39,132 nucleotides of DNA. Origin: a bacterium. Its GTDB lineage: Bacteria > Patescibacteriota > Minisyncoccia > Phycocordibacterales > Phycocordibacteraceae. Below are positions 3,617-35,207 of this stretch, one piece after another; position 1 is the first letter of the stretch; the number at the start of each line of letters is the position of its first letter. The translations under genes and the position numbers were made by a program. Under the pieces are notes generated by a model, which saw only the letters and a list, made by a program, of their open reading frames with translations, made no database searches and was not told where the DNA came from. The stretch is taken from positions 1 through 39,132 of the forward strand of contig JAJZTG010000006.1 in assembly GCA_021849125.1 (NCBI GenBank). Direction: 5' to 3'.

Positions 3617-3740
3617 GCGAGCGCACCAAAAGTCCCGCCTGCGTCGTTGCTCACTCCGGCGCTCACTCACCGTACCTTTAGTATGGCTCGCTTCGCTCCT
3701 CATTCGCGCCTCGCATCCGGGAGCTTTTTGAGGCGCTCGT
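3617..3740. repeat. imperfect palindromic (REP/MITE-like) element after the gyrA stop
   Basis: gcgagcgc(3617-24)/gcgctcgt(3733-40), caaaagtcccg/cgggagctttttg, tgcg/cgca, central cgtac-cttta-gtatg. Confidence 0.55.
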
Positions 3741-3808
3741 GAATATCCCCAGAGAGCATTCGTTTTGGCGTACGTTATGCTACCGTGGTGAAAGGGAATG
3801 ACGGTTCC

Positions 3809-3956
3809 TTTGCACGGGACAAGATTTGGTTTTGTGGAAAATGCGGGATTCGAACCCGCGGGGGTACTGAGTTGTAAGAGCCGTTCCCCCGTTCGGTTGG
3901 AAACCGAATGCATTAAACCACTCTGCCAATTTTCCTCACGTCTTGTCCCGTGCAAA
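3809..3956. repeat. 16-bp perfect inverted repeats enclosing a tRNA-like gene
   Basis: tttgcacgggacaaga (3809-3824) and tcttgtcccgtgcaaa (3941-3956). Confidence 0.9.
3835..3935 (-). tRNA. atypical class II tRNA: Ser-like body with TCC (Gly) anticodon and 32-nt variable region
   Basis: GGAAAAT-TG-GCA GAGTGGTTTAA TGC-A-TTCGG TTTCCAA CCGAA-(32 nt, GGGGG/CCCCC stem)-GCGGG TTCGAAT CCCGC-ATTTTCC-A. Confidence 0.8.
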
Positions 3957-4112
3957 AGACCTGTCTCCTCTAGACATTGTAAATACGATAGGGTCAAATT
4001 TCATGTGGATAGCGGCATTCTGAAACGGTTGGGAAATTTTTCAATACAAGTGATGTGCCGTTTTAGCATCGTCTTAAGGACATGCAAATTAAGAGGTGCT
4101 ATTATGGAAAGT

Positions 4113-4223
4113 AAGCCGCGATGAGTCGGGGAACAAAGCCGGTTCCGGGTGACGCCGGAACACGCTGACCATACTGAAATGGTCCAATCCCGACAAAGCC
4201 GTATCCTCGCGGCTTTTCTTTTT
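4113..4223 (+). ncRNA. candidate multi-branch structured ncRNA, family unknown
   Basis: TGcTATTAT extended -10 at about 4097-4105; four helices; U-tract after the closing stem. Confidence 0.5.
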
Positions 4224-4268
4224 GTGCTATTGTAATCGGGGAATCAAAACTTTTTGGAGGGAAGTGCC

Positions 4269-4487
4269 ATGAGGATCGTTAAAGAGTGTAGCGGTGGGAA
4301 AGTCGTGGTCGAATTCGAGAATCTGGTCCGACATGACTCGCGTGTTGTCGGACATATGAACTCCGTGCGGGCGTTCATCCCGGAAGAAATGCTCGGCAGG
4401 GTCCAGGATGCTGCTAAGGCCGGTGCTGCGATGGCCGAAAGATTCAGGGAGATTAATTTCCTGAACGATTCACGTCTACAGTGTTGA
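4269..4487 (+). CDS. small hypothetical protein (72 aa)
   Basis: GGAGG at 4256-60 before ATG 4269; TGcTATTGT upstream. Confidence 0.55.
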   Translation: MRIVKECSGGKVVVEFENLVRHDSRVVGHMNSVRAFIPEEMLGRVQDAAKAGAAMAERFREINFLNDSRLQC

Positions 4488-4489
4488 TT

Positions 4490-4544
4490 GCGCCCCCACA
4501 CTAACTACTGTGCATACATGATGCCGTAGTTGGTGTGGGGGCGT
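4490..4544. repeat. 19-bp palindromic hairpin of the CCCCRYACYRA family
   Basis: gcgcccccacactaactac / gtagttggtgtgggggcgt with inner gcat/atgc. Confidence 0.8.
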
Positions 4545-5105: not shown

Positions 5106-6409
5106 AAGTCTCGCTTTTCCAAGGGATCCTTTTCGCAATATTCGGTTTCGCCGCGCTTGTCGGACTCTTCGTTTTCTCGACGCACACGAGTACGACCGGA
5201 GGCGGCGCGTCAGAAGTGGGGTTGGTCACTATCTGGGGAACGCTCTCCAAACAAGACATCCAGAACGCGCTTACCGCGATAGGGCAAACGGACCAGTCCT
5301 TCAAGGAAGTCTCGTATGTACAGAAAGATGAAGCGACCCTCGCGAGCGACCTCGCTTCCGCGATCGCGACAGGCGATGCGCCTGACCTCGTGCTTGCTTC
5401 GCAGGAAAACCTTCAGTCGCTTGCAAGGCTCATTACTCCCATCCCGACCTCGACACTCTCGGCCGCAAGCTTCACCAGTGCTTTCATTGCCGAAGCGCAG
5501 CTTCTTACCACTCCGGACGGCTCGGGGTACTACGGCGTACCGTTTCTGGTCGACCCGCTCGTGCTTTTTTCGAATCGCGCGCTCCTGGCCTCGAAAGGCA
5601 TCGCGAAACCGCCTGCGACCTGGGAAGCGCTTACCGGTCTCGTCTCGACGGTGGCAGAGCTCACGCCGAATCGCCAGATCACGCGGGGGCTTATCGGGCT
5701 TGGCACCTATGACAACGTGCATAACGCGCGCGGCATCCTTTCTTCGCTTTTCTTGCAGACAGGGATACCCGTCTCGTTCTATAGGAATGGTGTCCTTGCA
5801 GCGAATCTGAGCAGCGGTACGTCAGGGACGAGCGTCCCGGGGCAAGCCGTTATCGGTTTCTATTCGCAGTTTGCGGATCCTTCGAAGCTTTCCTACACCT
5901 GGAATGCCTCGCTTCCTGACTCGCAGAAAGCATTCCTTTCAGGTGATCTCGCACTCTATCTCGGCTATGTTTCCGAGGCGCGATTCTTGCGCAATGCCAA
6001 TCCGAATCTCGATTTCGTCGTCGCGCCGTTGCCGCAACCGGGTACGGCGACCCTCAAATCGGCGTATGGCATCTTGTACTCCTTCATGATCCCGCGCGGC
6101 GCAAAGAACCCCTCGGGGGCATATCAGGCAGCAGCACTTCTCACCAGTAGCGCCGAGCAGGCGATTGCGGCGCAGGTGACCGGTCTTGCCCCGGTTTCTC
6201 TCACCGAGCTCTCGACGGCTCCCGCAGACCCGGTCGCTTCCGTCGCGTATGCTGAAGCGCTTTACGCGAACGGCTGGCTGTCCCCAACGCCCGCAAGCAC
6301 GGACCAGGTCTTTTCTAGTATGATTACAGGCGTGATAACCGGCCGTTTTACACCTGCCACCGCGCTCTCTTCAGGAGAAAATTCGTTAAATCTGCTTCTA
6401 CAAAAATGA
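5102..6409 (+). CDS. membrane-anchored extracellular solute-binding protein (sugar SBP-like)
   Basis: N-terminal TM, VTIWG, ATGDAPDL, YGVPFLVDPLVLFSN, PPATWE, FLSGDLALY. Confidence 0.85.
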   Translation: MKVSLFQGILFAIFGFAALVGLFVFSTHTSTTGGGASEVGLVTIWGTLSKQDIQNALTAIGQTDQSFKEVSYVQKDEATLASDLASAIATGDAPDLVLASQENLQSLARLITPIPTSTLSAASFTSAFIAEAQLLTTPDGSGYYGVPFLVDPLVLFSNRALLASKGIAKPPATWEALTGLVSTVAELTPNRQITRGLIGLGTYDNVHNARGILSSLFLQTGIPVSFYRNGVLAANLSSGTSGTSVPGQAVIGFYSQFADPSKLSYTWNASLPDSQKAFLSGDLALYLGYVSEARFLRNANPNLDFVVAPLPQPGTATLKSAYGILYSFMIPRGAKNPSGAYQAAALLTSSAEQAIAAQVTGLAPVSLTELSTAPADPVASVAYAEALYANGWLSPTPASTDQVFSSMITGVITGRFTPATALSSGENSLNLLLQK

Positions 6410-6825
6410 CTATGCCTACCATTCGTTCATTCGTTATCGCGGCACTCCTTGTCGTGTCGTTTGTACCGTTCGCGCATGCGGCAACCACCACCACTCCGCC
6501 GCCAAGTACCGTGACCACCACCACTCCGCCGCCAAGTACCGGTACCCAGGGTTCGGTGACTCTCATAAATCCTCTCGGCACCGGCACCACGCTCGAAGTA
6601 TTCCTGCAGAGGATCCTTGCTGTCGTAATCCGTGTCGGTTCGATCGTCGTTATCCTCATGCTGGTGTATACCGGATATAGTTTCGTAGCTGCACGAGGGG
6701 CACCGGCAGAGATAGAAAATGCGAAGAAGATGCTCCTCTGGACGGTCATCGGAGCACTCATACTGCTTGGTGCTCAAGCGATAGCTTCTGGCATCCTCGC
6801 GACCATACAGGCGCTCGGCGGGTAA
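6406..6825 (+). CDS. VirB2/TrbC-like pilin with Thr/Pro-rich repeat
   Basis: Signal peptide (AHA), LINPL, GYSFVAARG..AKKMLLWTVIG. Confidence 0.8.
   Translation: MTMPTIRSFVIAALLVVSFVPFAHAATTTTPPPSTVTTTTPPPSTGTQGSVTLINPLGTGTTLEVFLQRILAVVIRVGSIVVILMLVYTGYSFVAARGAPAEIENAKKMLLWTVIGALILLGAQAIASGILATIQALGG
6484..6541 (+). repeat. 30-bp period tandem duplication (TTTTPPPST x2)
   Basis: accaccaccactccgccgccaagtaccg at 6484-6511 and 6514-6541. Confidence 0.95.
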
Positions 6826-33935: not shown

Positions 33936-35207
33936 ATGCTCGATATTCATTTCATCCGCGAAAACGCTGACATCGTGAAGGCCGGTGCTGCGAAAAAGCA
34001 CATCGATGTCGATATCGACAAGCTCGTTGCCGTCGACGAGGAGCGCAAGCGCCTGCGCTTCGACCTCGATACCAAGCGTGCAGAGCAGAATCGCCGGAGC
34101 GCAGAGATCCAGCGCGCACAAGGGGAGGAGCGCGAGAAACTCCTCGAAGCGATGCGTCAGCTGAAGAGCGGCATGACGGAAGAAGAAGAGCAGCTGAAGC
34201 AGGTGATGGTCGAGTGGCAGAAGCTCATGCTCGCGGTGCCGAACATCCCTGACATGTCGGTGCCCGATGGCGATAGCGACGCGGATAATCTCGAAGTGCG
34301 CGTGTGGGGCGAGAAGCCGACCTTCGATTTCAAGCCGAAGCCGCACTTCGAGCTCATGCAGTCCCTCGGCATGGCCGATTTCGAGCGCGGCGCGAAGGTC
34401 GCTGGCTTCCGCGGCTGGTTCCTCGTGGGTGATGGCGCGCGCCTTCTCTGGGGTCTACGCCGTTTCGTCGAGGACCGCTTCATGAATCGCGAGGGCTTCA
34501 CGCCACTCGTCGCTCCTTCGCTCGTCCGTCGTGAGCCGTTCGTCGGTACCGGCTATCTTCCGCAGAGCGAGGAAGACCTCTACAAGACTCAGGATGGCGA
34601 ATACCTCTCGGGTACGGCCGAAGTGGGCACGATGGGATACTACATGGACGAAGTCGTCGACAAGAACGCGCTTCCGATCAAGTTCTTCGCATACTCGCCG
34701 GCGTTCCGCCGCGAAGCGGGCAGTCACGGCAAAGACGAGAAAGGCGTGTTCCGCGTGCATGAGTTTGAGAAGTACGAGCAGGTCGTCCTCTGTGAGGCGG
34801 ATCATGCCGAGAGCGTGCGTCAGCACGAGGCGCTCACGGAAAACTCGGAGAAGCTCCTCCAGGAGCTCGGCCTCCATTACCACGTCGTGGTCAACTGCGG
34901 CGGCGACCTCGGTCTCGGTCAGGTGAAGAAATACGACCTCGAGGCATGGATGCCCTCCGAGGAGCGCTTCCGCGAGACCCACTCCGCCTCCTATTTTCAT
35001 GATTTCCAGACGCGCCGTCTGAACATCCGCTACCGTGATGAAGACGGCACCTTGAAGTTCGTGCATTCGCTTAACAACACCGCCCTCGCGATGCCGCGCA
35101 TCCTCACGCATATCGTCGAGAATTATCAGCAGGCAGATGGGACGATAAAAGTGCCCGAGGTCCTCGTACCGTATGTCGGGAAGAGCGTCATCGGCAGAAC
35201 CGCGTAG
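33936..35207 (+). CDS. serS: seryl-tRNA synthetase
   Basis: MLDIHFIREN, coiled-coil arm, GTAE, FRREAG, RVHEFEK, HSLNNT. Confidence 0.97.
   Translation: MLDIHFIRENADIVKAGAAKKHIDVDIDKLVAVDEERKRLRFDLDTKRAEQNRRSAEIQRAQGEEREKLLEAMRQLKSGMTEEEEQLKQVMVEWQKLMLAVPNIPDMSVPDGDSDADNLEVRVWGEKPTFDFKPKPHFELMQSLGMADFERGAKVAGFRGWFLVGDGARLLWGLRRFVEDRFMNREGFTPLVAPSLVRREPFVGTGYLPQSEEDLYKTQDGEYLSGTAEVGTMGYYMDEVVDKNALPIKFFAYSPAFRREAGSHGKDEKGVFRVHEFEKYEQVVLCEADHAESVRQHEALTENSEKLLQELGLHYHVVVNCGGDLGLGQVKKYDLEAWMPSEERFRETHSASYFHDFQTRRLNIRYRDEDGTLKFVHSLNNTALAMPRILTHIVENYQQADGTIKVPEVLVPYVGKSVIGRTA

Follow-up and report, generated by a model that had tools for sequence, protein, structure and literature searches.

A tRNA gene that joins a serine-type body to a glycine anticodon, and the gyrA-linked cassette of putative hybrid-identity tRNAs to which it belongs

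The DNA analysed here, hereafter the window, is a stretch of 39,132 nucleotides from contig JAJZTG010000006.1 (C2) of assembly GCA_021849125.1, a genome of the Phycocordibacteraceae (Patescibacteriota) denoted G000. The assembly amounts to 578 kb in 7 contigs, with a GC content of 0.56 and an estimated completeness of 99.6%. Between the 3' end of the convergent gyrA gene and a gene for an S-adenosylmethionine (SAM) methyltransferase, the window harbours a transfer RNA (tRNA) gene, tRNA X, which combines a serine-type body with a glycine anticodon and is enclosed by the two arms of a long helix (Table 1). Such a chimera had been proposed in an original prediction made on this DNA, and each detail listed there (the 101-nt cloverleaf, the acceptor pairs, the Ser-like D arm, the 32-nt variable region, A73 and the loop TTTCCAA) is correct.

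Table 1. Features of tRNA X and its surroundings in the window
Feature	Position	Strand	Evidence
tRNA X: serine-type body of class II with anticodon UCC and A73; CCA not encoded	3835-3935	minus	RF00005, fold, Ser profile, orthologues
Anticodon loop UUUCCAA of tRNA X, anticodon UCC at 3899-3901	3897-3903	minus	sequence; same loop in the G240 orthologue
Variable region of tRNA X, 32 nt: C, GGGGG/CCCCC 5-bp stem, 21-nt loop	3860-3891	minus	sequence and fold
5' leader arm of the 25-nt leader/trailer helix	3941-3965	minus	inverted repeat 88% complementary, covariation; homologous arm in G029
3' trailer arm of the leader/trailer helix	3800-3824	minus	inverted repeat 88% complementary, covariation
-10-like hexamer TACAAT, ends 10 nt before the leader arm	3976-3981	minus	consensus scan; conserved TAnAnT
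Upstream block including TCCACA at 4004-4009	4004-4044	minus	82.9% identity over 41 nt with G108

The 101-nt sequence of tRNA X matches the Rfam tRNA family RF00005 with 60.1 bits (E 1e-10, model positions 1-71, gathering score 29), and a scan of the region up to E = 5 returned no Rfam family besides tRNA. The acceptor GGAAAAU/AUUUUCC (G1-C72, G2-C71, A3-U70) is followed by U8, the D arm GCAGAGTGGTTTAATGC (GCAGAGUGGUUUAAUGC in the RNA listing), an anticodon stem UUCGG/CCGAA around the loop, and a T arm GCGGG-UUCGAAU-CCCGC before the discriminator A73. The acceptor/T-stem arrangement is the canonical 7/5. As read from the sequence, the positions engaged in tertiary contacts are complete (U8, A14, G18G19, G15/C48, U33, TTCGAAT, G53-C61), and the cloverleaf is also what the 101 nt adopt at minimum energy (-34.9 kcal/mol, z -2.47), a value equalled by 5 of 200 shuffles. 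The missing CCA is normal, since most tRNA genes of G000 are without an encoded CCA. ARAGORN makes no call on tRNA X, probably because of its very long variable region.

A blastn search with tRNA X and its flanks in all 222 genomes of the genus identified two orthologues, in G108 and G240, both in the slot between gyrA and the methyltransferase gene. The G240 copy has the same loop, UUUCCAA, on another stem (CUCGU/ACGAG), with G73, an encoded CCA and a variable region of about 23 nt. The G108 copy has the loop CUUAAAA (anticodon UAA, leucine), also with G73 and an encoded CCA, and its variable region is about 18 nt long. At the syntenic position after gyrA, where the original prediction had suggested looking in relatives, 3 of 31 gyrA loci outside G000 have a tRNA and 28 have none.

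Isotype profiles were built from tRNAs of the genus (47 Ser, 17 Leu and 4 Tyr), unequal sizes that make the comparison a rough test. tRNA X of G000 obtains 36.8 bits with the Ser profile, 15.1 with Leu and 15.6 with Tyr, in agreement with the chimera originally proposed, and Ser is the best profile for all three copies (Ser 36.6-44.7 bits, Leu 13.1-27.0, Tyr 15.5-22.0). Most of the ordinary tRNAs closest to them are encoded by Ser(UGA) genes, whose D arm is TGGCAGAGWGGTCTAATGCA, from which that of tRNA X, with a 3-bp stem and C11-G24, differs by 1-2 letters. The Ser(UGA) genes of the genus also resemble tRNA X in their class II architecture and T loop, and they are the best non-cassette matches (70-82 bits) of a covariance model of the cassette described below; unlike it, they carry G73 along with a Ser anticodon and lack the leader/trailer helix. 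As for the anticodon loop, UUUCCAA recurs without any difference in the canonical tRNA-Gly(UCC) of both G000 and G240, and the CUUAAAA of the G108 copy does so in that genome's canonical tRNA-Leu(UAA). In tRNA-Gly(UCC), U32 is described as able to pair with A38, which restricts wobble (PMC10853795). Set against the features of a tRNA-Ser, tRNA X has the class II body and the Ser D arm and lacks G73 and a serine anticodon (NGA or GCU); set against those of a tRNA-Gly, it has C35, C36 and the Gly(UCC) loop and lacks the class I body and the Gly acceptor. By its sequence, then, tRNA X is a tRNA-Ser paralogue bearing the anticodon loop of tRNA-Gly(UCC).

The original prediction attributed this loop to a Ser(GGA) loop whose 7 nt were inverted inside the self-complementary stem TTCGG/CCGAA, an event that would be recent and, if reversible, would make a switchable Ser/Gly anticodon. 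An assembly error was named there as the alternative. The reverse complement of the loop, TTGGAAA on the plus strand, is indeed the loop of the tRNA-Ser(GGA) of G000, and no tRNA-Ser(GGA) was detected in G240. However, this match is built in, because the reverse complement of a UU-NNN-AA loop is UU-N'N'N'-AA and because UCC and GGA are complementary; moreover, the canonical tRNA-Gly(UCC) of G000 has TTTCCAA as its loop, too. The same loop stands on a different stem in G240, in the syntenic slot of an independently assembled genome, which speaks against a flip and an assembly error alike. The G108 loop CTTAAAA is not an inverted Ser loop and is one substitution away from the CTTGAAA of Ser(UGA), the isotype to which the closest ordinary tRNAs mostly belong, and a normal tRNA-Ser(GGA) has been kept in G000 and G108. 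We regard a flip or an assembly error as the least probable of the explanations considered here.

The pairing pattern indicates a long history. In the three-way alignment of the G000, G108 and G240 copies, 97.7% of the 129 pair cells are standard pairs, and 12 of the 43 pairs have changed on both sides; none of 500 shuffles reaches either value, and sliding the pairing partners brings pairing down to 37-48%. Within the tRNA stems, 9 of 20 pairs have changed on both sides, 10 are invariant and none is broken, and the G-U pairs agree with a minus-strand reading. The leader and trailer arms, which contribute three compensatory pairs, are more conserved than the tRNA stems, with 17 of 23 pairs invariant. 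The copies share 64-71% identity, and the canonical tRNAs of the same genomes 60.8-94.6%. Given this covariation of the stems and a divergence within the range of canonical tRNAs, tRNA X is an old gene under structural selection, rather than an artefact of the assembly, the product of a recent flip or a pseudogene.

The duplex of leader and trailer arms around tRNA X has a free energy (dG) of -44.2 kcal/mol and a z score of -7.1. For the other 39 tRNAs of G000, the leader/trailer values range from -9.7 to -28.3 kcal/mol, with z scores of -3.2 or weaker, and such a helix is thus unique to tRNA X in this genome. The arm sequence has no other occurrence in G000; as a once-only sequence, it is not a dispersed repeat. 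Upstream of the leader arm, TCCACA is followed 22-23 nt further on by a TAnAnT hexamer in all four cassettes known to us, the three already mentioned and a fourth in G029, and the hexamer ends 10-19 nt before the arm. The promoter originally proposed (ATGAAA-N17-TACAAT, 4004-3976) is thereby supported in its -10 element TACAAT, conserved in all four cassettes, and not in its -35 element ATGAAA, which is not conserved. In a consensus scan it matches 9 of 12 positions, and the region contains 3 sites where 1.1 are expected. After the trailer arm, G108 (L020 1652-1680) and G029 (L024 1283-1310), and not G000 or G240, share a GC hairpin motif, TGGCCCTCGGCCCGCCA, which may be a terminator or a processing signal.

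A relaxed pattern that ignores the tRNA located cassettes in 4 of the 222 genus genomes (G000, G108, G240 and G029), always in the gyrA slot. The G029 cassette has the same upstream motif and homologous arms, with a duplex dG of -28.3 kcal/mol, and its tRNA is of class I (RF00005, 60.4 bits), labelled tRNA-Arg(tct) by ARAGORN (locus L024). This tRNA has the loop CUUCUAA (anticodon UCU, arginine), A73 and an encoded CCA. Its acceptor, GGGCC../..GGUCC, contains G3:U70, as do the tRNA-Ala genes of the genus, and by our parse of the sequence its position 20 is not A, whereas the canonical Arg tRNAs here have A20. G3:U70 is the main determinant for AlaRS, the alanyl-tRNA synthetase, and A20 is a determinant for ArgRS, its arginyl counterpart. 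Work on G3:U70 in alanine identity is cited in a review (PMC7609411). The tRNA set of G029 is incomplete, with 36 Rfam matches that include no other Arg(UCU) and no Leu(CAG); in G000, the Leu(CAG) gene adjoins Arg(UCU).

Beyond these four genomes, no further cassette came to light. The relaxed pattern, allowing up to 3 mismatches, matched G000 alone among 401 genomes sampled from the order, and a paired-arm pattern matched G000 alone among 401 genomes of the class, a pattern that a G029-like copy would have escaped. A covariance model of the cassette with a Ser-type tRNA retrieved G000 and G108 alone from 151 genus genomes and nothing new from 151 order genomes, where the next best match, at 81.9 bits, is an ordinary Ser(UGA). 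The 101-nt tRNA X gave, by blastn against 60 relatives, partial matches to ordinary tRNAs and one chance match in a coding region. An exact pattern of the 5' arm occurred in five places in genome contigs, of which two are real (G108 and G240) and three due to chance, in three chance places in metagenome contigs and nowhere in viral contigs; as it required GCACG, it missed G029.

On a gyrA tree of 30 rows, from which G011 and G022 were left out (matches below 300 aa) and on which G029 was not labelled as a holder, the holders are scattered, and the three then known (G000, G108 and G240) need three changes. G099, the sister of G000 (support 99/96) and its closest relative without a cassette, contains no remnant of it, and G108 and G029 fall into one clade of 7 rows together with five non-holders. 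In cassette-free genomes, the gap between gyrA and the methyltransferase gene ranges from 41 to 1394 bp. This scatter implies either many losses of the cassette or its spread by recombination between species. A presence in 4 of 222 genomes, a sister genome without the cassette and copies only 64-71% identical might also be expected of a decaying, functionless duplicate. Yet all tRNA stems are intact, with pairs doubly changed and none broken, the divergence lies inside the canonical range, and the helix and the upstream motif are conserved, all of which makes decay very unlikely. tRNA X is a genuine accessory tRNA gene maintained by selection.

It is also a supernumerary one, since G000 already has canonical tRNA-Ser genes for UGA, GCU, CGA and GGA and tRNA-Gly genes for UCC, GCC and CCC; among these are the Ser(GGA) and Gly(UCC) genes that the original prediction had proposed to look for. 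Likewise, a canonical tRNA-Leu(UAA), with A73, is present in G108, and a canonical tRNA-Gly(UCC) in G240. The hybrid is redundant for decoding in each of the three genomes.

Could tRNA X of G000 nevertheless be charged with glycine? All four canonical tRNA-Ser of G000 carry G73, and tRNA X has A73, as do the canonical tRNA-Gly. The latter are of class I, with an acceptor GCGGG.. (G1-C72, C2-G71, G3-C70). C2-G71 and G3-C70 are determinants for GlyRS, the glycyl-tRNA synthetase. The GlyRS of G000 is of the dimeric alpha2 type (471.6 bits summed over the frame), and glyQ is absent from the genome. The original prediction argued that GlyRS needs U73 and C2-G71; the latter pair is indeed missing from tRNA X, while the U73 rule is inapplicable with an alpha2 GlyRS and tRNA-Gly that themselves have A73. 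By alloacceptor remoulding, tRNA X of G000 would have become an odd class II tRNA-Gly, glycylated by the alpha2 GlyRS through A73, C35 and C36, with no mistranslation as a result. The change from G73 to A73, the type of GlyRS and a loop identical to that of tRNA-Gly(UCC) all fit this scenario. Against it, tRNA X has a class II body, and G2-C71 and A3-U70 stand in place of the C2-G71 and G3-C70 found in all canonical tRNA-Gly of G000. Moreover, the G240 copy, whose UCC loop is the same, retains G73 together with an acceptor that resembles those of Ser tRNAs. In the G108 copy, G73 accompanies a Leu anticodon even though the canonical tRNA-Leu of that genome has A73, and each of the three copies obtains its highest score with the Ser profile. 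Remoulding is hence quite improbable in our view.

Several other features of the tRNA sets deserve mention. In the tRNA-Asn(GUU) gene of G000 (C7:108142-108822; locus L191 93-773, outside the window), the anticodon loop is interrupted by an insert about 600 nt long, which matches the group I intron model (RF00028, 62.6 bits, gathering 50) and contains an open reading frame (ORF) for a 107-aa HNH endonuclease (PF01844, 23.2 bits). As this insert splits the gene, ARAGORN and Rfam list no tRNA-Asn in G000. Five nucleotides from a normal tRNA-Gly(CCC), a degenerate tRNA-Gly-like sequence (C6:21708-21781, outside the window) is normal in its T arm and in the 3' half of its acceptor, and aberrant in its 5' half; it is called by ARAGORN and not by Rfam. 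A tRNA-Ile(UAU), an uncommon bacterial way of reading AUA, is present in G000 (C6:38991-39066), G240 and G029, and the tRNA-Ile(GAU) of G000 lies at the very start of contig C4. No tRNA-Ala was found in G000 by ARAGORN, Rfam or blastn with the tRNA-Ala of G240; it probably belongs to an unassembled ribosomal RNA operon. In G240, an assembly of about 30 contigs, the 40 Rfam tRNA matches (loci L106-L144) do not include a tRNA-Ser(GGA), and the gene may simply be missing from the assembly.

The four cassettes present three combinations of body and anticodon, namely Ser/UCC (G000 and G240), Ser/UAA (G108) and Ala-type G3:U70/UCU (G029). AlaRS and SerRS, the seryl-tRNA synthetase, do not read the anticodon. 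Because in all four tRNAs a body for a synthetase blind to the anticodon (SerRS or AlaRS) is thus joined to a foreign loop of canonical appearance, the explanation that we rank first, and hold tentatively, is that the cassette may be a genus-specific carrier of hybrid-identity, potentially mistranslating tRNAs charged by such synthetases. G000 has a single bacterial-type serS gene, in the window at 33936-35177, and in each of the 4 genomes where serS was found, one serS-family gene lies above the cut-off. RNase III is encoded in all five genomes checked. The precursor of tRNA X would be cut out of the leader/trailer helix, possibly by this enzyme, and maturation would presumably involve RNase P and CCA addition. 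The single SerRS would then charge tRNA X with serine, and at GGA and GGG codons the resulting Ser-tRNA(UCC) would be a competitor of the canonical Gly-tRNA(UCC), with a low-level, probably regulated, Gly-to-Ser ambiguity as the outcome. Transcription, processing, serylation and ribosomal use of tRNA X are all, at this stage, predicted steps.

A number of observations weigh against potential mistranslation. A73 may weaken the serylation of tRNA X. Codon use was compared over 175-218 orthologous ORF pairs per genome, based on crude calls of ORFs of at least 100 aa with a G000 homologue, the data for G108, G240 and G099 being subsets of 210-300 kb. GGA and GGG make up 0.296 of Gly codons in G000 and 0.358 in G240, which have UCC hybrids, 0.382 in G108, which has the UAA hybrid, and 0.277 in the cassette-free G099; for UUA and UUG among Leu codons, the corresponding fractions are 0.106, 0.166, 0.171 and 0.092. 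There is thus no avoidance of GGA/GGG in G000 or G240, nor of UUA/UUG in G108. The orthologue comparison gives no signal of codon reassignment either: GGA and GGG codons of G000 align with Gly in the orthologues in 74-78% of cases and with Ser in 3-5%, for 77-84% and 2-4% in the case of GGC and GGT. Serine insertion would strike about 2% of all codons, at conserved glycines, which argues for low or conditional translational activity, or for none. As for expression, DNA of a public mine drainage metagenome matches with a share of 0.29, with two contig pieces that cover 4049-4300, beside tRNA X, and two RNA runs of the same study contain next to no matching words. In G029, the cassette tRNA could be that genome's working tRNA-Arg. 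Finally, the anticodon differs among orthologues (UCC, UCC and UAA), which would also suit a role independent of decoding.

In such a role, the cassette tRNAs might serve as aminoacyl donors, as decoy loops for a nuclease, a toxin or a modification enzyme, or as regulatory RNAs that remain within the helix; the anticodon would then be free to vary, or selected for its mimicry of the Gly(UCC), Leu(UAA) and Arg(UCU) loops. Besides the variable anticodon and the silence of the codon data, this idea is favoured by cassette loops that are exact copies of canonical ones, and by arms whose conservation (17 of 23 pairs invariant) exceeds that of the tRNA stems (10 of 20), as might be expected if a partner recognised their sequence. 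Candidate partners did not emerge from our searches. FemAB and LPG_synthase_C are found in none of five genomes, and PF13480 is above the cut-off in G240 alone, with a weak sub-threshold match in G011, so that none of these three aminoacyl-tRNA transferase families is common to the cassette holders. YrlA, a bacterial Y RNA, has a long terminal stem and a tRNA-like domain and works with a Ro/TROVE protein; in contrast, the Ro/TROVE family (PF05731) is absent from all five genomes, and Rfam detects tRNA only. Non-decoding roles have also been proposed for inactive allo-tRNAs (PMC5389517). Nevertheless, to judge from its parts, tRNA X appears to retain all the features for normal processing and use on the ribosome, and two of the copies encode CCA. 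A role outside decoding is therefore a serious alternative, albeit a somewhat doubtful one.

Returning to hybrid-identity tRNAs that would act in translation, it is tempting to speculate that the gyrA-proximal cassette is a gated mistranslation slot. The helix of about 25 bp would block maturation until an RNase III-like nuclease or some condition frees the tRNA, and the contents of the slot would have been exchanged over evolution between hybrids that insert Ser at GGA/GGG (Gly), Ser at UUA/UUG (Leu) or Ala at AGA/AGG (Arg). This elaboration is unlikely as it stands. If true, it would provide minimal symbionts with a switchable blurring of their proteome, with possible benefits in stress tolerance, surface variation or the spoiling of phage proteins.

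The surroundings of the cassette hold additional elements. Directly after the gyrA stop, a noncoding element of about 125 nt (3617-3745) is 69-84% identical in G029, G016, G099 and G108, and so is also present in cassette-free genomes; it has no Rfam match. It contains a covarying hairpin (CCGTAC/GTATGG versus CCGCAC/GTGCGG) and outer arms at 3618-3631 and 3726-3739, and could represent either a small RNA or an element belonging to the 3' end of gyrA. On the other side, an 18-nt inverted repeat (4491-4508 and 4526-4543, 94% complementary) spans the start of the methyltransferase gene at 4530. An 85-aa ORF at 4244-4501 on the minus strand was taken as spurious, with no Pfam match and no homologue in 32 loci, and a 245-aa membrane ORF beside the G240 copy, which recurs only in G026, was set aside as unrelated to the cassette. 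Farther away, a 139-aa ORF (6406-6825, plus strand) with type IV secretion system (T4SS) pilin and TrbC-VirB2 domains (PF18895, PF04956) follows a gene for a solute-binding protein.

Among described systems, the closest in principle are the allo-tRNAs (Mukai et al. 2017), bacterial tRNAs of Ser or Ala identity with many non-cognate anticodons, patchy and accessory in their distribution, which insert Ser or Ala at non-cognate codons when expressed in Escherichia coli (PMC5389517, PMC7609411). The cassette tRNAs share with them a Ser identity (long variable arm) combined with UCC or UAA and, in G029, the Ala-type G3:U70 and A73 combined with UCU. They differ in that the allo-tRNAs described in these sources have 8/4 or 9/3 acceptor/T-stem arrangements instead of 7/5. 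Those allo-tRNAs come from Clostridia, Proteobacteria and Acidobacteria and often lie near toxin-antitoxin genes, whereas tRNA X is found in a Paceibacterota-type genome, in a fixed gyrA slot and with a leader/trailer helix. The tRNA-ProX/ProRSx pair of Streptomyces and Kitasatospora is similar in its natural dual identity, with the anticodon of one isotype on the body of another, thought to serve deliberate mistranslation, and in its unsolved role. However, tRNA-ProX comes with a dedicated synthetase paralogue, whereas the neighbours of tRNA X are gyrA and the SAM methyltransferase gene and there is a single serS per genome (PMC11415595). Mistranslating anticodon variants of tRNA-Ser in yeast, flies and humans exploit the same indifference of SerRS to the anticodon, a change of which yields a serine-inserting missense tRNA. 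Those variants are single-nucleotide changes in ordinary tRNA-Ser genes and are mostly deleterious, unlike tRNA X, which is old, has been kept as an orthologous gene in several species, and has a promoter motif and a putative processing helix to itself. By analogy, tRNA X may work like the allo-tRNA and tRNA-ProX systems without belonging to either family. Its new elements are the 7/5 fold, the candidate-phyla host, the orthology across species, the swap of tRNAs within one slot and the conserved precursor helix. We found no description of such a tRNA or cassette in Parcubacteria or the candidate phyla radiation (CPR) in the literature searched, a search that covered articles and not the allo-tRNA supplements, which may list anticodons and taxa.

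In nature, tRNAs with an identity at odds with their anticodon are rarely encountered and present an unsolved biological problem. A shared slot with three combinations of body and anticodon suggests that hybrid tRNAs are selected for in their own right, in bacteria whose genomes, at about 0.6 Mb, leave little room for superfluous genes. As ARAGORN misses tRNA X and would annotate related copies as ordinary tRNAs for Leu, Gly or Arg, hybrids of this kind may be under-counted in metagenome-assembled genomes. With one tRNA, one SerRS and one helix, the cassette would offer a compact, testable system for regulated, deliberate mistranslation in bacteria.

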